The notes beneath the pieces were generated by a model that saw nothing but the letters and a program-made list of their open reading frames with translations, did no database searches and was not told where the DNA came from. 64,000 nucleotides of DNA from Gemmatimonadota bacterium (GTDB lineage Bacteria > Gemmatimonadota > Gemmatimonadetes > Gemmatimonadales > GWC2-71-9), in assembly GCA_039588295.1 (NCBI GenBank), contig JBDHAB010000002.1, positions 143,663 through 207,662 on the forward strand, in the 5' to 3' direction. The position numbers were made by a program, and so were the translations under genes. Each line of letters begins with the position of its first letter. Position 1 is the first letter of the stretch. Positions 28,467 through 54,359 of the stretch are shown one piece after another.

Positions 28467-29315
28467 CTAGTGACGTCGGCTCCAGCCACGGGAGTGCTTC
28501 ACGTGCTTCGGCGCGTCGAACTTCGTGCGGCTCAACACCTCATCCAAGTCCTCGACCTCGAGGAACGGACCGTAGTTGAGGTAATCCGTGCCCGATGGGA
28601 CGGTGAGGGTGCCGTCGGGGAAGATCATGACGTATAGACGGTCGAGCGTCTCGTGGGTGAGCCAGTTGATGGGAAATGCATGAAATGACGTCTCCACCAG
28701 CCGACGCAGCGTGTCGAAATCCGCGTCGGACACCACCAAGGTGTCCCACTCGACTTCGCTCATCGCCCGTGGGAACGCTTGGAACAGGTTGTAGAACAAA
28801 CGGTTGGGGATATGCTCGGCACGCTCATCCAACAAACGCACAATCGCGGGCACATCTCGCAGGTTATGCAGCGTCACGGGAGTGGCGATCTTCACGTCGA
28901 TCGCGGGGAAGTCGGCCAAGATGTCCAGGTCCTGCATGACGCGCGTGAAATGTCCTTCCTTCTTGGTACGGCGCGAGACGGGTTCCGATGCGCCGTCCAG
29001 CGGCAGAGAGATCAGGTCGATCGACGCGCCATATTCGACCAGGAACTCACGCGTCAGCTCGTCACCGGTCGTCGAGATCGCGACCTCCAGACCCACTTCT
29101 TTTGCCACTTCCACGAGTGATCCGATATCCTTGCGCAGCAGTGGGTCGCCTCCGGTGAACACCACGCGCCGTGCGCCGACTGCCGCAATCTTGCGCACAA
29201 TCTCCACAGCAGTCGACGTATCTACGGGGTGCTCGAACCCCTGCGGCCCCCAGCAGTAGGTGCACTCCTGATTGCACTCCGCGGTAACGTGGAAATCGAT
29301 GGTAACGACCGACAC
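28467..29315 (-). CDS. Radical SAM enzyme, viperin-like
   Basis: CNQECTYC, FTGGDP; viperin-like blocks FHVT, YGASIDLI, KIATPVT..N, LFQ, SDADF, YVMIFPDG, FD..H; no SPASM cysteines. Confidence 0.8.
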   Translation of the reverse strand: MSVVTIDFHVTAECNQECTYCWGPQGFEHPVDTSTAVEIVRKIAAVGARRVVFTGGDPLLRKDIGSLVEVAKEVGLEVAISTTGDELTREFLVEYGASIDLISLPLDGASEPVSRRTKKEGHFTRVMQDLDILADFPAIDVKIATPVTLHNLRDVPAIVRLLDERAEHIPNRLFYNLFQAFPRAMSEVEWDTLVVSDADFDTLRRLVETSFHAFPINWLTHETLDRLYVMIFPDGTLTVPSGTDYLNYGPFLEVEDLDEVLSRTKFDAPKHVKHSRGWSRRH

Positions 29316-33098: not shown

Positions 33099-34166
33099 GT
33101 GAACCAGAACCACAGCGACGAGCCCCGTCAGGCCGACATGTATCCGGCTAGGCCACCGATGCGCTTGGGACTCGCCATTACAGAGCACTGCAATCTCCGC
33201 TGTCCACATTGCATCCGTGACGACGTGACGACGGTTCGCTCTCTCGAGACCGAGCTGATAGCCTCAATCGTGGATCAGGCGAAGGCGCTGTACGGCTCCG
33301 TGGTCGTCAGTCTCACCGGGGGAGAACCTCTACTTCATCCCGAGTTCGCAAGGATCGCTGATATCTTCGTGGAGCGCGCCGTTCCGTACCGATTCGTCAG
33401 CAACGGATGGCACGTGAACCGGATCGCGCGGATCGTGCGTCGCTGCGCGCCTCAAGCGGTGCGGCTGAGCCTCTCCGGTGCCACGCCAGAGACCCATGAT
33501 GCCGAACGTGGCGACGGGAGCTTCCATCGGGTACTCCGGAGTCTCGCCGTGCTCACGAGCGAGCAGATTCCTTGCGACCTGTCGATGGTGATCGATCGGC
33601 GCAATCGACACGAACTCGAGGTGGCGGCCGACCTAGCGGAGTCATTGGGATGTCTCAGTATCAGCTTCATTCTGCCCCAACCGACGCCGGGGAGCGCCGA
33701 GCGGGACAGCGATCTGCCTCCAGATGCTTGGTTGCCGACCAAACGTGCGCTGGAGAACCTGGCACAAGAACCCGGACGGCAGTCACGAGTGAGGATCGAC
33801 TACGGTTATCCATTCGACGGCCCCGAGACTCCGTGCGAGACGTTCGCTCTCCAAAGGATCTACGTGGACACGCGTGGGCGGGTTTGCACGTGCTGTCAGC
33901 TGTCGAACTACGGCTTTACGGAGACGGAAACGGTCGCGGACTTACACACCACATCTCTTGCCGAGGCGCATGACCTCTACGTTACGCGGCTCGAGGCATT
34001 GCGCCAAGCACAGCAGCCAGACTCCGCAGCACCACACCTGAGCGATCCGTTTCCGTGTATCCGGTGCGCTCGAGCGAGCGGAAAGCTCGGATGGCTGGCG
34101 GACTTCCCCCAGTCCGCATGGCACGGAGCGGCACGCCAGCCAACCAAGGTCACGCCAGCCGCATGA
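33099..34166 (+). CDS. Radical SAM enzyme with SPASM/Twitch-like C-terminus; candidate peptide maturase
   Basis: CNLRCPHC, TGGEP, SNG; C-terminal PC...GRVCTCC...PCIRC; no N-terminal RRE. Confidence 0.88.
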   Translation: MNQNHSDEPRQADMYPARPPMRLGLAITEHCNLRCPHCIRDDVTTVRSLETELIASIVDQAKALYGSVVVSLTGGEPLLHPEFARIADIFVERAVPYRFVSNGWHVNRIARIVRRCAPQAVRLSLSGATPETHDAERGDGSFHRVLRSLAVLTSEQIPCDLSMVIDRRNRHELEVAADLAESLGCLSISFILPQPTPGSAERDSDLPPDAWLPTKRALENLAQEPGRQSRVRIDYGYPFDGPETPCETFALQRIYVDTRGRVCTCCQLSNYGFTETETVADLHTTSLAEAHDLYVTRLEALRQAQQPDSAAPHLSDPFPCIRCARASGKLGWLADFPQSAWHGAARQPTKVTPAA

Positions 34167-34549
34167 AGCGTTTGCCGCAAATCGCCGTCGGATGTCTTGC
34201 GGCCGTTCGGACCCCGTTCTGGATTCACGGGCCACGTCTGGAGACGCTCTTGACCGGGCCGGCAGATTCCCACCAACGGTCCGGGAGTCCCGGAGTCGCG
34301 ATCAGGGTGTCTCGACTAGCCCTGCGGATGCTGGGCCGGCTCCCGCTGTTGCCCTGGCGGAACACGTGCCTCTATCGAAGCGTCGCCGAGTGCTTGGTGC
34401 TTCGGAGCTACGGAATCGGGTGCCGGTTACAGGTGGGGGTCAAGCGTGCCTCGTCGGCCCCGGACTCGATCGACGCGCATGCGTGGGTCCTGCGAGATGG
34501 TGAGGATCTCGGCAGCGCCTCACACACGCTCCTTCGACCCAGCCCGTGA
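34163..34549 (+). CDS. Lasso-peptide B2-type leader peptidase (transglutaminase-like Cys protease)
   Basis: TCLYRS, LQVGV, AHAWV; ATGA-coupled to the radical SAM gene. Confidence 0.88.
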   Translation: MKRLPQIAVGCLAAVRTPFWIHGPRLETLLTGPADSHQRSGSPGVAIRVSRLALRMLGRLPLLPWRNTCLYRSVAECLVLRSYGIGCRLQVGVKRASSAPDSIDAHAWVLRDGEDLGSASHTLLRPSP

Positions 34550-34589
34550 CGACCTCCGCTAGCACCGCTCACTGAGGAGTGGGTTCGCC

Positions 34590-35105
34590 TCAGTACTCTA
34601 TGCTGGGGCACTCAACGCGGCGAGCGAGCACCGGAGCTGTTCCCGTAGAGGGCTTTCCTTCCACCCGCTCGTCGGTGAAGGACGTGATTTCGCCCCTCAG
34701 ATCCTGGCCCTCGATATGAAGCGTCATACTCACACCGGCCAGTGCTCCGGGGTGACCGATGAACAGCGAATCTCCGGCCACGAACCGCCAGTAGTTGAAC
34801 GGGTGATCCCAGGCCCGACCCTCAGTGATACTGTGCGCCACGAACACGGTGCCGTACTGTTGCACTAAGCTCGGCCAAACCGTCAGCTTCGCGGTGTCGA
34901 GCTTGACGGTGGGTGCACTACCCCAGGCGGCGCGTTGCCGCTCTGCCTCCGGTCCCGGTTCGCCGGACCAGAACTCCAACTCATAGCAGCCCGCGACCTG
35001 TTCCGGAAGCGGCAGGCGATCTCGTTGGGTGTTCGACGCAGAACAGCCTCCGACGGCCGTCCACAGTGCCGACAGCATGAGCGAGGCAGACCTTGCTGCG
35101 TGCAT
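34590..35105 (-). CDS. Lipoprotein, hypothetical
   Basis: Lipobox VGGC; AGCYEL ... ARRVEC. Confidence 0.65.
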   Translation of the reverse strand: MHAARSASLMLSALWTAVGGCSASNTQRDRLPLPEQVAGCYELEFWSGEPGPEAERQRAAWGSAPTVKLDTAKLTVWPSLVQQYGTVFVAHSITEGRAWDHPFNYWRFVAGDSLFIGHPGALAGVSMTLHIEGQDLRGEITSFTDERVEGKPSTGTAPVLARRVECPSIEY

Positions 35106-35118
35106 CCCGAGCCTCTGG

Positions 35119-36246
35119 CTATTCGAGCACGCCCGCGGCCCGGCGCGGCGCGCCCGTGCCGGTGGGTATCTCGACCGTCGCACTTGGATCCGCGGGGTCG
35201 AGCCAGCGAAGGGTGGGCGTGTTCCCGATCCATGCCGTGTACACGATTCGACCGTCCGGCAGCCACGCAGGCTCGCCGTCGGCGCCCGGACGATCGGTGA
35301 GCTGTGTCAGAGCCATGGTGTTCAAGTCCAGGAGGAACAGCTCGGTGTCTCCGGTGCTGTCCGATGCAAACACGACCGATTCGCCGTCCATACTCCATGC
35401 CGGCTCCACCGCTGCCGTGTTGCTGAGGACGAGGACTGTGGGCGTCCCTCCGGGGATCTGTAGGGTGAAGACGTCGGCCGTGCCGTTCGTGGTGGAGACG
35501 AACACCAGCCGGTCTCCCGAGGGACCCCAGCTCGGCGATGCCTCCACCGACCCGCCAGTTCCGAACCCTACCGTGACAGCCTGAGCGTTGCTCCCGTCTG
35601 CCTGCACGGTCCAGAGCTTGAACACTCCGGTTGGGTTCGCGGTGTAGGCGATCTGACCACCACCCGGCGTGAGGGCTGGCTGTATCTCACTGTCGGCGGT
35701 GTCCGTCAGCCGGACAGCCGGGCCACTACCATCCAACGGCACCGAGTAGAGCTCGGCGTTGCCGTCCCGGAAGCTGGTGAAGACGATGGTCCCTCCCGCG
35801 GCCGTCGGGTCCTCATCATCAGCCGCTGCGTCGGTGAGAGATTCGAGACCGTCTCCATCAAGGAACATGCTGTAGATATCACGGTTGCCGTTCAGCAAGA
35901 GATCGAATACCACTCGCGGCGGGAGAGCGATTTCCAACACACGTGTACCCATCACGATGCTACGAGCCTCGATCTGCGCTTCGGCTTGGAGCGTGACGGT
36001 TCCCGCACTCAAGAACGTGACTCGGCCTTCGGAGAGAAACTGCAGCAGGTTGGGTGGTTCTGCGGTCCACTCGATTAGGGAATCGGCGACCGGCTCGCCC
36101 TCGAACACGACGCGCACCTGCGCCGTCGAGCTCCGCTCGATGCGACCGTCGATCTCGATCTCCAGCACAGGAACAGGGCCCGTCGCGTCACAGCTCGTCA
36201 GTGCGGCTGTCAACGCGACAGGCCCGAGAACGCGCCATGGCGACAC
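35119..36246 (-). CDS. Lipoprotein with Ig-like domain and TolB-like propeller
   Basis: Lipobox LTSC; RDGNAELY, SPSWGPSG, EPAWSMDG, EPAWLPDG. Confidence 0.85.
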   Translation of the reverse strand: MSPWRVLGPVALTAALTSCDATGPVPVLEIEIDGRIERSSTAQVRVVFEGEPVADSLIEWTAEPPNLLQFLSEGRVTFLSAGTVTLQAEAQIEARSIVMGTRVLEIALPPRVVFDLLLNGNRDIYSMFLDGDGLESLTDAAADDEDPTAAGGTIVFTSFRDGNAELYSVPLDGSGPAVRLTDTADSEIQPALTPGGGQIAYTANPTGVFKLWTVQADGSNAQAVTVGFGTGGSVEASPSWGPSGDRLVFVSTTNGTADVFTLQIPGGTPTVLVLSNTAAVEPAWSMDGESVVFASDSTGDTELFLLDLNTMALTQLTDRPGADGEPAWLPDGRIVYTAWIGNTPTLRWLDPADPSATVEIPTGTGAPRRAAGVLE

Positions 36247-36260
36247 GAGTGGCCCTCGGC

Positions 36261-38045
36261 TTACCGCCGCCGGTCGGGACGAAGCAACGTGATTCGGCCC
36301 TCCTCATCCACCCCGTAGAGCGGCCCCTGCCACATATCATCGAGGAGCTGCAGCTGGGTGGCATCTGCCACAGGCGCTCCGAGGGCGGGCGGTGCGCAGA
36401 ACGGGCAGGTCCATGTATCCCAGCCTGAGGCGGCAACCGTGTAGCCCATGTCAGCTAGCGCTTTCACGGTCACCTCGCTGAGTGGTATGGGAGTCATGGG
36501 AGCTTCAATGAAGCCCGTCATGAGCTCGTCATTCAGCACCGACTCACGCCAGTGCCCGCACCTTGTCCCAGGACCAAAATCATTCTCGACCGGCACCTTG
36601 TTTCCAACGTAGGTGCCACCACCGTTGCTGTTGAAGGCAGCAATCGCGAGCGGCCCGTTGAAGTAGGGGTCAGTCGTGAGCGGGGGCGGCGGGTCATCCG
36701 CAACCGGGAAGCAATCAGTCAGTAGGCCATTGTCGTCGGACAGCAGTCCCATGCTGATCCACCTAGACGTGCCCATGCCCAGCACGTGCCCCATCTCGTG
36801 CAGGACCACGTCTCCAAACTGATTGTTCGCCTCCATGTTGGCCACGTCTGCGGTGTCGAACGTCATGACTCCATAGATCGGGAGCCCGCCCGTTGTCCGG
36901 ACAAAACAGGGACCCGCACTCCCGAGGATATTCCCGGGACCGTCGATACTGTCGAGCACAGCATTGATCGCCAAGTCATCGACGATCTCATCGATCGGCA
37001 TCCCACACTCGTTGCCGCCCCACGTGAGCAAGACGGGAGATAGATCCCCAGTGATGAGGCTCTCCCAACGAGCCGCGGCACTATTGAAGGCGGCCTCTTG
37101 GCTCGCCGTCATGGGAGTCAGGAAGTGAAGCTCGATCTGAAAGCCCGCAACGAAGGGGTTCACGGTGATGCGCGAGGTCCCGTCGGCCTCTGGGCCGCCG
37201 GTCGACCCGATAATGTCGACCACCCCGTCCGACACAGCCGTGACCACGCCCGTGCTGGGATCAACGCTGGCGATTGACGGATCTGAACTCGTCCACGTGA
37301 CTGTGCCGCCAATGTCCCGATCGACGACATCACGGACCGTCGCGCTCAACGGAATAGTCGCCCCACCGACAGTCGTGAACCCCGAACCCGGGGTCACATC
37401 GACATATCCGTTCTCACCCCACACATCAGCATCGACGAAGACGGTGAATCCGAACGTGGTTACGGAACTGGGCACGTCCCATATCCACGTCTTCGGTGAA
37501 GTGGTGCCGTTCGCCGGAACGTATTCGAGATACTCAAAATACGGCTGGTTTGATCCGGTGAAAGTCCCGGTCCCATCCGCGTTATTCACCGTAACCGTAC
37601 CCGTTCCGCTCGTCACGTTGGGTCCGGTGTGGTGGAACACTCTGACTCCGGTCGTCGTGATCCCCCCGTCCGGACTGCCCAGCCCCTGAGTGATGAGGTT
37701 TGTGACTGTGACGTCGGCTTGGAAGAACTGCGACCCGTCGTAGCTCACACTGCTCGACGTGAGCGTAACATACTGATTCTGGCCACCGAGAATCACCCGT
37801 TGCGGACCCGGTTCGGTCTCACCAGCGACCACTGAACTCGGCCCGCACGAGATCTCACCCGCTGCCACGTGCGCGGTACAGGTTAACGACGCGACGACAT
37901 TCCGGTTGCGGGCAGGTTCAGTGACTTCTTCCTTCGTCACTTCCTCCGGAGAGGTCACGGGTATGTCGTCCATGCACGCCACGACCAAGAACGGCAGCGC
38001 GAGGAAGACGATGAGGCGATTCACGGTCGCTAGGTTGCCGCGCAT
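36261..38045 (-). CDS. Lipoprotein: Ig-like (Big_2) domain plus leishmanolysin-like (M8) Zn metalloprotease
   Basis: ATG 38045 with GGAGGG RBS; lipobox VVAC; VTWTSSDPSIASVD; HEMGHVLG, GHWRE, ELMTG Met-turn. Confidence 0.85.
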   Translation of the reverse strand: MRGNLATVNRLIVFLALPFLVVACMDDIPVTSPEEVTKEEVTEPARNRNVVASLTCTAHVAAGEISCGPSSVVAGETEPGPQRVILGGQNQYVTLTSSSVSYDGSQFFQADVTVTNLITQGLGSPDGGITTTGVRVFHHTGPNVTSGTGTVTVNNADGTGTFTGSNQPYFEYLEYVPANGTTSPKTWIWDVPSSVTTFGFTVFVDADVWGENGYVDVTPGSGFTTVGGATIPLSATVRDVVDRDIGGTVTWTSSDPSIASVDPSTGVVTAVSDGVVDIIGSTGGPEADGTSRITVNPFVAGFQIELHFLTPMTASQEAAFNSAAARWESLITGDLSPVLLTWGGNECGMPIDEIVDDLAINAVLDSIDGPGNILGSAGPCFVRTTGGLPIYGVMTFDTADVANMEANNQFGDVVLHEMGHVLGMGTSRWISMGLLSDDNGLLTDCFPVADDPPPPLTTDPYFNGPLAIAAFNSNGGGTYVGNKVPVENDFGPGTRCGHWRESVLNDELMTGFIEAPMTPIPLSEVTVKALADMGYTVAASGWDTWTCPFCAPPALGAPVADATQLQLLDDMWQGPLYGVDEEGRITLLRPDRRR

Positions 38046-38170
38046 CTTTCGTCCCTCCAGATCAGGCGATCCAGGAGTGTCTTGGAGTCGCAACACCGAC
38101 CCCTCGACGTCACTACGGACGCATCGGGAATCGCAGGTCGGCGCGTTTGCAGAACTCGATTCCAGTTGCC

Positions 38171-38191
38171 AAAAAACAGCCCGGTGGGCCG
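38171..38191 (-). terminator. Intrinsic terminator after the small peptide gene
   Basis: CGGCCC-ACC-GGGCTG-TTTTTT, 12 nt after the TAG. Confidence 0.65.
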
Positions 38192-38203
38192 GATTCGACC
38201 GAC

Positions 38204-38377
38204 CTAGAAGACGCTGCTGCCGCCGCCCGGGTTACCGGTACCGGGGATCGGACTCCCAGTCTGCAGTGTGAGATCGGTGAGCCTCGGCAACTCTCGAAGC
38301 TCCGGCACGACCCATGGCTTTCGACGTCGCCCGCTACCCTGTGTTGCGACCTGTGCCACATCGTCGTCATGCTGCAT
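38204..38377 (-). CDS. RiPP precursor peptide with lasso-type leader (57 aa; not in ORF track)
   Basis: Manual translation MQHDDDVAQVATQGSGRRRKPWVVPELRELPRLTDLTLQTGSPIPGTGNPGGGSSVF; GGAGG RBS; W22xxP25xL27...T37. Confidence 0.8.
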   Translation of the reverse strand: MQHDDDVAQVATQGSGRRRKPWVVPELRELPRLTDLTLQTGSPIPGTGNPGGGSSVF

Positions 38378-38521: not shown

Positions 38522-38577
38522 TTGACACGCGACCCCACTCCACCAATATTCCCCATATGAAAAGAATTTTTCGGATA
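38522..38577 (+). promoter_or_regulatory. Promoter (TTGACA) plus candidate BlaI-family operator 1
   Basis: TTGACA 38522-38527; quasi-palindrome TGAAAAGAATTTTTCGGATA 38558-38577. Confidence 0.55.
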
Positions 38578-38584
38578 CACGCCC

Positions 38585-38965
38585 ATGACTGATCCGGCCA
38601 GCCTGAGCCGTCGCGAGCGGGAGATCATGAACATCGTCTACCAGCTGGGCGAGGCCGGGGCCGCCGAAGTCGCCCGGCGGATGGCGGACGATCCGGGCTA
38701 CGACTCGGTGCGGGTAACGCTCGGCATTTTGGAGAGAAAGGGCCACGTGAAACATCGGAAGGACGGCCGACGAAATGTCTATTATCCGACCGTCCCTCGC
38801 GAACGGGCGACGAAGAATGCCGTCAAAAACCTTCAGAAAACGTTCTTCCGCGGGTCTCCGTCCAAGGCGATCCTGACCATGCTGGACATGTCCTCCGCCC
38901 GACTCACTCAAGCCGAGCTGGACGAGATCGCCCAGTGGATCGAGAAGGAAAGGAAGTTCAAATGA
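38585..38965 (+). CDS. BlaI/MecI/CopY family repressor
   Basis: LSRREREIMNIVY, YDSVRVTLGILERKGHV, TFFRGS. Confidence 0.93.
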   Translation: MTDPASLSRREREIMNIVYQLGEAGAAEVARRMADDPGYDSVRVTLGILERKGHVKHRKDGRRNVYYPTVPRERATKNAVKNLQKTFFRGSPSKAILTMLDMSSARLTQAELDEIAQWIEKERKFK

Positions 38966-40671
38966 TATCGTACCTGGCCGCGTCGATCGCCGCCGACCTC
39001 CTGCTCAAGGCATCCGTCGTCCTGCTGGTCGCGTGGATCGCCACTCGTTCCCTCTGGTGGACCTCGGCCGCTATCCGGCACGCGATCTGGTGCCTGGCCT
39101 TCCTCGCCCTCATGGTTTTGCCGGCGCTCGAGCGGGTACTGCCGTCCTGGGGACTTGACTCGCTGGTGAGCCAACAGACCGTTGCTCCCAGTGAGACCGC
39201 GTCGCCCACCGTACCCGTCGTGGCCGAGGTGGCGGTATCCGCGCAGGTGCCCCCTGCGCCCGCGCCGCCACCGGCTGCGCGGCCTCCAATCGAGGCACTG
39301 CTGTTCGGTGGGCTTCTCCTTTGGATGGGAGGCGCCGCCCTGATCCTCGGGCGGCTCGCGTTGCATGCCCGTCGTGCCTCGCAGCTCACGGCTCGCGGTT
39401 CACCGGCGAGTTCCGAGCTCATGCGCAGTCTCTCGGCAGCTTCCCTCGCGTTGGGCGCCCGTCGACGGATACGCGCCGTCGTGAGTAACGAGATCCCGAT
39501 CCCCGCGTCGTGGGGCATCGTGCGTCCCGTCATCCTGCTGCCCGCCGGCGCCGAGTCGTGGCCCCGGGAGCGACTCCACGCGGTGCTCACCCACGAGATC
39601 GCGCACATCGCGCGGCACGACTACGTCCTCCATCTTCTGGGCGAGTTGGCCCGCGCGTTGTACTGGGTGAACCCGCTCATATGGATCGCCGCACGACGGA
39701 GTGCGATGGAGCGTGAGCGCGCCTGCGACGACGTTGCCGTCCGATCGGGCGTCGAGCGGGATGCCTACGCATCGCGTCTCCTCGAGATCGCGCGTCTGCA
39801 ACTCTCGCCACCGGCCGCTACCGGCGCGCTCGCCATGGCCGAACGCTCTGGCCTGGCCGAACGCGTACGCGGGATTCTCAATCGGACGACGAACCGCTCA
39901 CCCGTGGGCGCCGCTCGGCTCGCGGTCATCGCAGTGGCCGCGGCACTCGTCGCCGTCCCGGTCGCCGCGTTCCAGATCACCCAAGACCGTCCACCTTCAA
40001 TCGCACAGTTGCTCGAGGATCTGAAGAGCGACGACGTCACCGTTGCCCGTCGTGCGGCCTGGTGGCTCGGCGAGCGCGAGGACTGGAGCACCGTGGATGC
40101 GGTGATTGACGCCATTCGTCGAGGCCATCCGGACGTTCAGCTTGCTGCCGCCTGGGCCCTAGGCGAGATCAAGGATCCGCGCGCCATCAACAGCTTGGCC
40201 GAGTTGCTCGACAGCGGCGATCCGCTGCTTCGAGAGATGGCAACGCTGTCGCTCGGCGAAATCGAGAGTCCCGAGGCCGTGCCGACCCTGATAGCCGCGT
40301 ACGAAGCCGACGCCACGCTCGGTACCGCCGTGATCTGGGCGCTGGGCGAGATCGATTCCGATGAGGCGGAGGCAGCGCAGTACCAGACCGCGAAGGAGCT
40401 GGGGCGACCGCTCGGCACGCACGAGCAAGTGTGGATCGGCCCGCTGGACGTGAAATGGGACGCCGAAGTGTCGCAAAGCGCATCGCAACTGATCCGCGCA
40501 CTGCAATCGTCATCCACGGCAGCGACCCGTCGTCTCGCCGCACGCGATCTCGGGCTGCTCGGCGAGTTCAGCGCCGTCGACCCCTTGCTCGACGCCATGC
40601 GCGACCCCGATCCCATGGTGCGCTCGATGGCGGTGTGGGCGTTGGACGAGATCAACCCGTCGAGGAAGTAA
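38962..40671 (+). CDS. M56 (BlaR1/MecR1-like) metallopeptidase with C-terminal HEAT repeats
   Basis: SAAIRHAIW, HEIAHIARHD, YWVNPL, ERACDD; AAWALGEI-type repeats; ATGA-coupled. Confidence 0.92.
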   Translation: MISYLAASIAADLLLKASVVLLVAWIATRSLWWTSAAIRHAIWCLAFLALMVLPALERVLPSWGLDSLVSQQTVAPSETASPTVPVVAEVAVSAQVPPAPAPPPAARPPIEALLFGGLLLWMGGAALILGRLALHARRASQLTARGSPASSELMRSLSAASLALGARRRIRAVVSNEIPIPASWGIVRPVILLPAGAESWPRERLHAVLTHEIAHIARHDYVLHLLGELARALYWVNPLIWIAARRSAMERERACDDVAVRSGVERDAYASRLLEIARLQLSPPAATGALAMAERSGLAERVRGILNRTTNRSPVGAARLAVIAVAAALVAVPVAAFQITQDRPPSIAQLLEDLKSDDVTVARRAAWWLGEREDWSTVDAVIDAIRRGHPDVQLAAAWALGEIKDPRAINSLAELLDSGDPLLREMATLSLGEIESPEAVPTLIAAYEADATLGTAVIWALGEIDSDEAEAAQYQTAKELGRPLGTHEQVWIGPLDVKWDAEVSQSASQLIRALQSSSTAATRRLAARDLGLLGEFSAVDPLLDAMRDPDPMVRSMAVWALDEINPSRK

Positions 40672-52647: not shown

Positions 52648-52874
52648 CTCGTACGGCGCCGCGCCCGCCGTCTACCGGCCAGTGCCCACCCGGAGCGCCT
52701 GATGGACCGGCGCTGTATCAGCCCCGGCCTTGGAGCGGATCACGCGATCGATATCAGTCATCGTTACTCAGGCAAAGCGTGCGTCCGGACCAGGGTTCGC
52801 GCAAGCGTGCGAGTGCGGGAGGCTTCATCATGCGCTGCTGCCTCGACAACCATCGGTCCAGTCATACATTTGAC

Positions 52875-54359
52875 ATGACCCAAGAAGACGAGTGGAAGAT
52901 GGACGGATCCCACGTCAGATCACCCAGTCGTTCGGTCGTATCGGACGCCATCAAAGAGCGCGGCCTGTGGTATGCCACTGAGATCTATGCCCGGCTGCCA
53001 CAGAAGCTACGGCAGCGAATCGCGCGATCGCAGATCCGACGGGGGAACCGGTTCAAGGAAGGCGAGGAGTTCTTGCTCCATGCCCTCAAGGTGGTGTCGC
53101 GCAGATGGAGATCGCTGCATCCCAATGCGCGCCGGCGCTTCGTGCAAAACGCGTTCGGATACTACGTGATTCACGGGCCCGAAAAGAACCGGATCGCCGA
53201 CACGCTGTTCGACGGGGAGTACCCGAAAGCCATGGTCGTTAGTCCTACCATGCGGTGCAACCTCAAGTGCCAGGGCTGCTACAGCGCCAACTACGACCGG
53301 CGGGACGCAATCTCCACCGAGCGGTTCCACACGTTGCTCGACGAAGCCAAAGAGCTGGGCATCAACTTCATCGTCGTCAGCGGAGGCGAGCCATACTTGC
53401 GTAAGGACCTGCTCGAGGTCTTTGAAACGCATTCCTCGATGTTCTTCCTGACCTATACCAATGGAACCGTCATCGCCGATCGCGGCTTGGCTCCCAAGCT
53501 CGCCAAGCTTGGCAATGTGATGCCCTGTGTCAGCGTCGAAGGATTCGAGCAGGAGACCGAGGCAAGGCGGGGTGAAGGAGTGTTCGGGAAGATCGTCCGC
53601 GCCATGCGCGAGATGAAAGACGCGGGGGTCATTTTCGGCTTTTCCGCCACTCCCATGCGCCACAACAACGAGTTGTTGCTGACCGATGAGTTCGTCGAGT
53701 TCTACATGAATCTCGGGTGTCTCATCGGATGGTATTTCACGTACATGCCAATCGGGCGCTCGCCCAATGTCGATCTGATGCCGACACCGGCGCAGCGCCT
53801 ACACCGGTACCACCGCATACGGGCCTTGAGAGCCAGGTACGACATCATGGTCGCTGATTTCTGGTGCGACGGCCTGCTAACCGGCGGATGTCTCTCTGGC
53901 GGGCGAAGCTACTTCCATGTGAACGCGTCGGGCGGAGTGGAGCCGTGTGTCTTCAATCAATTCTACGTGGACAGCATTCTCGAGAAGTCGCTCAAGGAGT
54001 GTCTCACCAGCGCCTATATGCGCGACGTGCGGCTCTCGTTGAACGATGTGGAGAACCCGCTGCGGCCCTGCCCCGTGTGCGACAATCCCTGGCTCCAGCG
54101 GCGTTGGGTTGCCGAGCACGGCGCCACGCCGGGCCAGCCGGGGGCGGACGACGTGCTGAAGGGTGAGGTGGCCGCGTTCCTCGATCAGTACGCCACCGAC
54201 CTCAAAGACATCTTCGACCCGATATTCGAGCAGACACGCTCCGGTTGTCCGTGGCCACTCCACCCCGAGCGTGCACCGAACCCGGCAAACACCCCGCCCG
54301 GCGGACGGCCGGAGGTGAGCGCGCCAGAACCGGAGCGGACAATGCTCCCGACCCTCTGA
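52875..54359 (+). CDS. Radical SAM/SPASM-Twitch protein with N-terminal extension
   Basis: CNLKCQGC, SGGEP, TNG; GGCLSGG..YFHVN..GGVEPCVF, RPCPVCD. Confidence 0.9.
   Translation: MTQEDEWKMDGSHVRSPSRSVVSDAIKERGLWYATEIYARLPQKLRQRIARSQIRRGNRFKEGEEFLLHALKVVSRRWRSLHPNARRRFVQNAFGYYVIHGPEKNRIADTLFDGEYPKAMVVSPTMRCNLKCQGCYSANYDRRDAISTERFHTLLDEAKELGINFIVVSGGEPYLRKDLLEVFETHSSMFFLTYTNGTVIADRGLAPKLAKLGNVMPCVSVEGFEQETEARRGEGVFGKIVRAMREMKDAGVIFGFSATPMRHNNELLLTDEFVEFYMNLGCLIGWYFTYMPIGRSPNVDLMPTPAQRLHRYHRIRALRARYDIMVADFWCDGLLTGGCLSGGRSYFHVNASGGVEPCVFNQFYVDSILEKSLKECLTSAYMRDVRLSLNDVENPLRPCPVCDNPWLQRRWVAEHGATPGQPGADDVLKGEVAAFLDQYATDLKDIFDPIFEQTRSGCPWPLHPERAPNPANTPPGGRPEVSAPEPERTMLPTL

Follow-up and report, generated by a model that had tools for sequence, protein, structure and literature searches.

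A candidate peptide-modification system of Gemmatimonadota that may serve a family of secreted lipoproteins

Introduction

Among the peptides that are made by ribosomes and modified after translation (RiPPs), paeninodin and pseudomycoidin are lasso peptides that are phosphorylated or phosphoglycosylated and come from clusters with split B1 and B2 proteins, as set out in the relevant sections of PMC8498205. Recognition of the YxxP motif in such leaders and the Thr(-2) rule are treated in sections of PMC12710340 and PMC10885120. A different chemistry is represented by EpeE. According to passages of PMC13012085, PMC8326336 and PMC5682303, this enzyme epimerizes Val and Ile, its hydrogen donor being Cys223, and carries a Twitch cluster. 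The pairing of an RRE (RiPP recognition element) with a radical S-adenosylmethionine (SAM) enzyme is already known in bulk, because a passage of PMC7470986 mentions, as false positives, about 300 RREs of lasso type that lie next to radical SAM enzymes. Here we describe a locus in a 64,000-nucleotide stretch of a Gemmatimonadota genome (assembly GCA_039588295.1, contig JBDHAB010000002.1, positions 143,663 to 207,662; the whole stretch is called the window in the following), in which a peptide with a lasso-type leader lies close to a radical SAM enzyme, a B2-type peptidase and two kinds of lipoprotein. We assume, with a probability of roughly 0.5, that the locus is part of a so far undescribed Gemmatimonadota system in which peptides are modified in an RRE-dependent manner and which serves a secreted lipoprotein family.

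Results

The genes and elements of the locus that concern the system are as follows (window positions):

33159..34166, plus strand: radical SAM enzyme with a predicted Twitch-type C-terminal domain, 335 aa (PF04055, alignment, model)
34163..34549, plus strand: lasso B2-type (transglutaminase-like) cysteine peptidase, 128 aa (PF13471, NF033537, alignment of 21 sequences)
35119..36246, minus strand: TolB-like beta-propeller lipoprotein of a system-specific subfamily (PD40 repeats, subfamily profile)
36261..38045, minus strand: lipoprotein with signal and lipobox, GGQ domain, Big_2 domain and M8-like HExxH protease domain; an ATG with a GGAGG site was used as its start
37401..37898, minus strand: GGQ domain of this lipoprotein, a beta sandwich of about 160 aa with an invariant Cys pair (alignment of 54 sequences)
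38204..38377, minus strand: precursor peptide, 57 aa (four close paralogues, family alignment)
38264..38377, minus strand: predicted leader, M1-L38 (search pattern and lasso Thr(-2) rule)
38207..38263, minus strand: predicted core, Q39-F57, 19 aa

Relatives of the enzyme were found in a genome collection by an enzyme alignment search (a locus search of the genomes with a single sequence returned nothing), and the best 80 of 109 relatives gave 79 loci, which come from Gemmatimonadota or an unclassified bacterium. The leader pattern of the peptide is present in 72 of the 79 loci, three of the seven misses being shorter than 3.2 kb, and in 52 of 78 matches the peptide immediately precedes the enzyme. 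Furthermore, a GGQ gene was found in 47 loci, a TolB-like gene in 44, an RRE in 39, an HprK-like kinase in 34, a B2 peptidase in 24 and an NTP_transf_5 transferase in 23, many of the loci being cut by contig ends. Among the 25 loci of at least 15 kb, 24 contain the peptide, 19 the TolB-like gene, 17 the GGQ gene, 17 the RRE, 15 the kinase, 10 B2 and nine the transferase. Together with enzyme and peptide, the parts of the system number eight. A common gene order is peptide, enzyme, GGQ, TolB-like, RRE, B2 and kinase, with the transferase facing these genes.

The co-occurrence of peptide, radical SAM enzyme and B2 proposed in the original prediction, which had been made from the sequence of the locus, was thus recovered. 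The coupled enzyme-B2 pair noted there turned out to be a local rearrangement, because relatives place B2 between RRE and kinase. The lipoproteins, which had been taken for bystanders, proved to be the most informative part, and the list of enzymes had missed the kinase and the transferase. No cyclase accompanies the system: a profile built from the four PF00733 proteins of the genome gave an asparagine-synthetase match in none of the 79 loci, and the window core, having neither Asp nor Glu, cannot form a lasso ring.

Within 401 genomes of the phylum the enzyme occurs in 28, the peptide in 26 and both in 25; in the other three genomes with the enzyme, the peptides next to it are longer and divergent and keep Ile-x-Gly near their end. 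Although the loci behind the peptide profile had been selected by means of the enzyme, the profile matched only one of 373 enzyme-less genomes. The GGQ domain is present in 37 of the 401 genomes, among them 25 of the 28 with the enzyme, and the kinase (E <= 1e-20) in 24 of 25 genomes with a close enzyme versus 0 of 20 system-free genomes, three of which show weaker matches. The system is almost certainly real, and its parts very probably all act in one pathway.

In the genome of the window, RRE, kinase and transferase lie together on another contig (C35:25378-28083) and are 72%, 64% and 58% identical, respectively, to counterparts that stand in cis in the loci L087/L088; the C35 RRE scores 123 bits against the family profile. 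An RRE had been supposed to be either supplied in trans or unnecessary: the first option fits C35, the second does not agree with the 39 loci that carry an RRE. The transferase matches PF14907 with 55.2 bits, which is over the cut-off. For the kinase a weak TIGR04352 match (E 1e-6) was obtained, and in NCBIfam both kinase (HprK_rel_A, 27.9 versus a cut-off of 200) and RRE (25.1 versus 35) stay below threshold. The window B2 matches PF13471 with 49.8 bits (cut-off 26) and NF033537 with 50.6 (cut-off 33), its C69 and H106 are invariant in the alignment, and it is the one clear B2 of the genome, 50-60% identical to B2s inside clusters of the same system. Several loci join the RRE straight to the kinase with no B2 in between, and of these two partners the kinase is the more constant one. 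A PqqD/AsnB cluster on contig C159, where two of the four PF00733 proteins adjoin PqqD, was rejected as partner, its RRE reaching 47 bits versus 123 for C35. This cluster (about 8-19 kb, L055) contains PqqD, an HprK-like and an NTP_transf_5 protein, two asparagine synthetases and, by eye, three ferritin-like proteins, with no B2.

A GGAGG site precedes the peptide gene by 6 bases, and the peptide matched no family of Pfam or NCBIfam. Four close paralogues are encoded on contigs C7, C9, C20 and C57, and the leader pattern occurs five times in the genome, always in near-identical peptides. Counted with Thr as position -2, the leader positions are W-17, P-14, L-9, P-8, L-6 and L-3, with the same spacing in 75 of 75 matches, although W/F, P-14, L-6, L-3 and T-2 were imposed by the search pattern itself. 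The full spacing is what we take to be that of lasso leaders, and a cut after L38 is predicted because of the lasso Thr(-2) rule. The window core has Ser/Thr at position 2, Ile-x-Gly, a Gly-rich linker and a hydrophobic end, and is devoid of Asp/Glu, Cys and internal aromatic residues. Of 71 cores, one of which is doubtful, 69 have Ser/Thr at position 2 and 61 have Ile-x-Gly, the latter versus 28 +/- 3.8 in shuffles (maximum 40). Asp/Glu at position 7-9 occurs in 19 cores and Gly, Ser, Cys or Ala as first residue in eight; 15 cores have two Cys and 56 none, 10 have an internal aromatic residue and 61 none, and the length ranges from about 13 to more than 35 residues. The peptide is genuine and conserved, and its core does not have the make-up of a substrate for lasso, sactipeptide or cyclophane formation.

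Several alternatives concerning the peptide were discarded. A sixth peptide candidate in the window near 61.7-61.8 kb is without the leader pattern, and a mycofactocin-like C-terminal decarboxylation was dismissed since the last residue of the cores is Phe or Pro instead of Tyr. Stop-codon readthrough joining the peptide to the next gene was rejected because frames are random (in frame with the enzyme in 17 of 50 cases and with GGQ genes in three of 15) and stops are mixed. In addition, a group of Longimicrobium loci (L122, L126, L133; about 11.6-12.7 kb) carries, downstream of the enzyme, a second peptide that has a leader but matches weakly; in two loci it comes after an extra kinase. An integrase-like gene (by eye) follows shortly after the C7 peptide copy (L050:12601-13791, G000:C7). 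About 20 genes, many of them for secreted lipoproteins, are preceded at a distance of 40-120 bases by a repeated element that is about 90 bases long (contigs C9, C20, C25, C40, C43, C44, C57, C74, C88, C93, C99 and others of G000). The element precedes three peptide copies and two GGQ genes, had one weak match in related loci and is possibly a lineage-specific promoter or leader RNA. On C38 (G000, about 1660-1700) the remnant of a peptide core, without a leader, adjoins the beginning of this element, and a GGQ gene lies downstream.

The radical SAM enzyme matches PF04055 with 80.9 bits. Its reading frame is open from 33099, and the ATG at 33159 is a more likely start than the GTG at 33099 because the protein-collection call (335 aa) and the homologue starts agree on it. 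Besides CxxxCxxC, an alignment of 31 sequences shows five invariant C-terminal cysteines (C246, C265, C266, C320 and C323), and CCQL is kept in 120 of 120 homologues. Pfam gave no SPASM match in the window's enzyme, and the cysteine set fits a single-cluster Twitch-type domain, in which four of the residues can hold one auxiliary cluster. The predicted structure (predicted local distance difference test, pLDDT, 84.8) is closest in fold to SuiB (Z 23.0), SkfB (21.7), BlsE (21.6) and PqqE (20.9). C265 aligns with the PqqE cysteine that ends the G-x4-C motif, and the two residues after this ligand face the active site according to a passage of PMC10288494; therefore C266 (and Q267) would, by analogy, be at an inward-facing position.

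The best NCBIfam match of the enzyme is ScmF (98.7 versus a cut-off of 400), MftC reaches 84.4 versus 265, and the YydG family is absent from the best 25 NCBIfam matches. A profile match to EpeE covers the N-terminal 80 positions only (E 4e-4), and the C-terminal domain matched none of the listed structures by sequence. The enzyme is fused to a propeller lipoprotein in P0078 and L099, and in a divergent branch (L084, L085, L086; enzyme identity 38-40%) the cores are longer, position 2 is Tyr and the kinase comes right after the enzyme.

The GGQ domain is common to nine lipoproteins of the genome and matches no Pfam family. Its model is a confident beta sandwich (pLDDT 92.5) for which Foldseek gave no match at E <= 0.001; the best structural match is 7dda (Z 8.0, root-mean-square deviation 3.1, 115 aligned residues), followed by CBM2- and adaptin-like sandwiches. 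The family comprises 1410 clusters at 50% identity, and 135 of the best 150 sequences have a lipobox-like motif before the domain by a loose pattern. The C-terminal parts, surveyed in 50 of the best 150 chosen for length, contain Big, invasin, RCC1, FG-GAP, lamin-tail, cadherin, beta-helix, dockerin, M8 or phosphoesterase domains, with 10 of the 50 lacking a match; in two long proteins (P0243, P0278) dockerin domains lie ahead of the GGQ domain. Lipoproteins whose C-terminal domains are unrelated can have near-identical cores beside them. Among the 45 peptide copies there are 20 at a distance from the enzyme, and 19 of the 20 have a GGQ gene within 2.5 kb, a count from which the GGQ places of peptide-less genomes were mostly left out. 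Two proteins with YadA-head and Peptidase_S74 domains stand between a peptide-GGQ pair and a second GGQ gene (L052:4136-7540, G000:C20).

The link is also seen in single polypeptides. All seven peptide matches in two genomes (G293 and G102) are N-termini of GGQ lipoproteins, in the order leader, core, hydrophobic helix and lipobox, and no free peptide copy was found in these genomes; G293 keeps the enzyme, the TolB-like gene, RRE, B2 and kinase beside the fusions. By a strict pattern, the whole precursor is fused in 24 of 54 database matches, and by eye in three more; identical proteins may be among all these. A metagenome scan with a fused protein found nothing. GGQ is furthermore fused to a TolB-like propeller in four loci, and the TolB-like protein of the window scores 375 bits against the subfamily profile versus at most 183 for the other propellers of the genome.

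When the GGQ domain was co-folded with peptide residues 28-57, the score was 0.51 (best control 0.00; runs 0.51, 0.65 and 0.00), with a contact agreement of at least 8% and a partner pLDDT of at least 33. Of the solved pairs 116 of 157 reached the mark for a pass, and of the mismatched pairs two of 215; at scores up to 0.60 it was reached by only 18 solved pairs and by both mismatches; the model thus lends weak support to a pairing of GGQ domain and peptide.

Other parts of the window fit the original prediction as well. The gene places, including those of the M8/Big_2 and PD40 proteins, were reproduced by an open reading frame (ORF) check and Pfam, and so was the ATGA overlap of the enzyme and B2 genes (34163-34166). 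Whole-genome searches with PF00733 and PF05402 gave no match in the window, in keeping with the stated absence of a cyclase and of a PqqD/RRE protein; none of the four PF00733 proteins lies there. Among 51 window ORFs compared with Pfam, the sole ATP-binding cassette (ABC) parts are an importer-type permease and a TOBE ATPase at 4.8-6.5 kb. Two further features belong to the locus:

34590..35105, minus strand: lipoprotein of unknown function, non-conserved (no Pfam match, no homologue in the 79 loci)
38167..38191, minus strand: terminator-like hairpin with a T run, between peptide gene and lipoprotein gene

The hairpin is a lead only because the two such hairpins in the region do not exceed the 2.6 expected, and Rfam gave no matches in the 31-40 kb part of the window. 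Three neighbours were rejected as conserved parts: the 174-197 aa lipoprotein (0 of 79 loci), a second TolB-like gene at 32-33 kb (distant matches only) and BlaI/BlaR (near three of 79 loci). The latter, a BlaI-like repressor and a BlaR1/M56 peptidase with HEAT repeats (38585-40671, plus strand), is divergent from the peptide gene, with a sigma-70-like promoter at 38522-38550. A second radical SAM gene (28467-29315, minus strand) has the prokaryotic viperin family as top NCBIfam match (82.5 bits, below the cut-off of 180), and a third (52779-54359, plus strand) has a weak SPASM match, with no precursor seen among nearby ORFs.

Discussion

In the mechanism that we propose, the stand-alone RRE would bind the WxxP leader, by lasso precedent, and the Twitch radical SAM enzyme would take the C-alpha hydrogen, most likely from the Ile of Ile-x-Gly; the spare Cys266 would return a hydrogen and thereby leave a D-residue. 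The HprK-like kinase may phosphorylate Ser/Thr of the core, onto whose phosphate the NTP_transf_5 protein may add a sugar or nucleotide. We give even odds to such a phospho-modification of the core by kinase and transferase, because of the precedent of paeninodin and pseudomycoidin. B2, where present, would cut after Thr-Leu. The matured core could then be the partner or tag of the GGQ domain at the envelope, with the TolB-like protein as dedicated periplasmic helper, and the outcome would be export, anchoring or assembly of lipoproteins with interchangeable adhesin-like or enzyme domains. A role at the cell envelope rather than as an antibiotic is suggested because the peptide stays beside, or fused onto, the lipoprotein family, and we consider the chances of an envelope role tied to the GGQ lipoproteins to be balanced. 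It is more doubtful that RiPP enzymes have become a dedicated display system for surface proteins, in which a D-residue-containing, phosphoglycosylated peptide, in trans or as the modified N-terminus of the lipoprotein's signal peptide, docks on the constant N-terminal domain; it seems likewise speculative that such a display directs export, anchoring or assembly of more than 1000 lipoprotein types with interchangeable tips, with the help of the TolB-like propeller.

Several observations weigh against this proposal. The counts come from related genomes and are not independent, and the pairwise identities of the parts are loosely related to those of the enzyme (Spearman 0.15 to 0.62). Twelve of the 37 GGQ genomes are without this enzyme; in four of the 12, RRE and kinase (in three with the transferase) adjoin GGQ genes, and a peptide was found in one of these only. 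A close B2 (at least 75 bits) occurs in 17 of 28 enzyme genomes, and no exporter is conserved, an ABC ATPase being found in 10 of 79 loci. Ile-x-Gly is missing from 10 of 71 cores, and a C-terminal Ser, the residue that known lasso kinases modify, occurs in none of the 71. EpeE, with a fold Z of 17.0, ranks below SuiB, SkfB, BlsE and PqqE, and C266 could be a cluster ligand instead. The precursor-GGQ fusions probably arose once, because all share one junction. Under normal lipoprotein processing the fused core would stay cytoplasmic, apart from the GGQ domain, because it precedes the hydrophobic helix. As to the enzyme-less GGQ loci themselves (L199, L200, L203, L208), the peptide of L208 is divergent, is 66 aa long and contains two Cys.

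For the enzyme, epimerization of the Ile in Ile-x-Gly ranks first, as a tentative assignment, because of the fifth invariant Cys, the conserved Ile-x-Gly and the analogy to EpeE. In EpeE the donor Cys presumably follows a ligand Cys, an arrangement that the passages given in the Introduction do not show. Oxidative chemistry is a real contender, be it a Ser/Thr ether or C-C crosslink, cyclopropylglycine formation at Ile, a thioether in cores that have Cys or backbone cleavage at Gly; the other steps proposed above could hold in this case too. The closest folds, SuiB, SkfB and PqqE, are crosslinking enzymes, two Cys are present in 15 of 71 cores and Ser/Thr at position 2 is better kept than Ile-x-Gly; on the other hand, Cys is absent from 56 of 71 cores and an internal aromatic residue from 61 although their enzymes are 51-72% identical to that of the window, and a spare invariant Cys next to the cluster ligand is more in line with epimerization.

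A diffusible signal or antimicrobial peptide, for which the TolB-like and GGQ lipoproteins would be receptors, immunity or processing proteins, seems unlikely. The precursor, being short and separate and having a ribosome site and terminator-like hairpin of its own, its position directly upstream of the enzyme (52 of 78), the protease domain of the window's GGQ protein and the divergent BlaI/BlaR pair would suit such a peptide, whereas the exporter is not conserved, BlaI is near only three of 79 loci and the core is Gly-rich and uncharged. Near-identical cores beside lipoproteins with unrelated C-terminal domains, and the fusion to signal peptides, speak against it as well.

We hold it to be similarly improbable that the peptide is a cytoplasmic or membrane scaffold that brings in RRE-dependent enzymes to act on the lipoprotein, a lipid or a small molecule assembled on the peptide, as for fosfazinomycin, with the peptide then being discarded. 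The topology of the fused form, the dispensability of B2 in several lineages and the variable core length (about 13 to more than 35 residues) would agree with a scaffold, and in a passage of PMC13622209 a kinase and a nucleotidyltransferase ligate a small molecule onto a YxxP peptide. The conserved neighbours, however, include no small-molecule biosynthetic genes, the core motifs are conserved and the GGQ co-fold passed weakly. Finally, an ordinary lasso system with a cyclase elsewhere, or a chance juxtaposition, is highly improbable: the genome does have four PF00733 proteins, two of them beside PqqD on C159, and one clear B2, but none of the 79 loci has an asparagine-synthetase match, the window core is without Asp/Glu, few cores have a suitable first residue (G/S/C/A, eight of 71) or Asp/Glu at 7-9 (19 of 71), and the B2 is 50-60% identical to the B2s of the system.

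An RRE-dependent system serving the lipoproteins, as preferred here, would be a candidate RiPP class in a poorly cultured phylum that is common in soil and sediment, and would show lasso leader machinery operating without a cyclase. If the enzyme epimerizes, it is possibly the third independent peptide-epimerase family. The system would furthermore offer a handle on a large unannotated lipoprotein domain. Its surprising element is that a natural RiPP precursor is fused to the signal peptide of a lipoprotein. Provided that this link is functional, enzymes that tailor peptides would serve envelope biogenesis and modify large proteins via a portable leader.

Comparison With Described Systems

No description of the system was found in the papers that were searched. 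The word stem "Gemmatimonad" does not occur in the main texts of PMC7470986, PMC8939145, PMC12710340, PMC10288494 and PMC10036551, nor in one supplement of PMC10288494 and one short supplement of PMC12710340, and the ten mentions in PMC8692599 all concern other clusters. SynChlorMet (TIGR04248-04251), a bioinformatically defined cassette of PqqD and radical SAM proteins, and HPr-rel-A (TIGR04352/04353), one of PqqD and a kinase, contain the best NCBIfam matches of enzyme, kinase and, weakly, RRE, all far under cut-off, and SynChlorMet has two radical SAM enzymes, not one as here; to our knowledge, a lipoprotein link is not part of either definition. A 2023 survey by Kretsch et al. reportedly covers RRE-dependent peptidases outside lasso clusters; its data, the RRE-Finder data sets and bioRxiv supplements may list the family.

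With lasso systems in general the locus shares the (Y/W)xxP leader, Thr at -2, B2 and the RRE, whereas the cyclase and, in the window core, Asp/Glu at position 7-9 are missing. The core Cys of sactipeptides and ranthipeptides are absent from the window core, as is the aromatic residue of triceptide- or streptide-like cyclophanes, which 10 of 71 cores have.

Fosfazinomycin, in the sections of PMC13622209 that describe it, likewise assembles an RRE, kinases and a nucleotidyltransferase around a short peptide with no lasso; in contrast to the present system, it needs an asparagine-synthetase-like enzyme and phosphonate genes and has no B2, no such radical SAM enzyme and no lipoproteins. The epipeptide enzymes (EpeE/YydG) may resemble the enzyme described here, as far as the cited passages go, in one auxiliary cluster in a Twitch domain, a spare Cys and Ile/Val in the substrate. 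EpeE is only 16% identical (Z 17), however, and in the same passages acts independently of a leader, without RRE, B2, kinase and transferase, and its product is a secreted membrane-active peptide. The features shared with paeninodin and pseudomycoidin, in the parts of their description considered here, are a stand-alone RRE, B2, a (Y/W)xxP leader, Thr at -2, an HPr-kinase homologue and a nucleotidyltransferase. Compared with these two, the Gemmatimonadota system is without a cyclase, a cyclizable core, a C-terminal Ser and a dedicated exporter, and has in addition lipoproteins of two kinds and a radical SAM enzyme.

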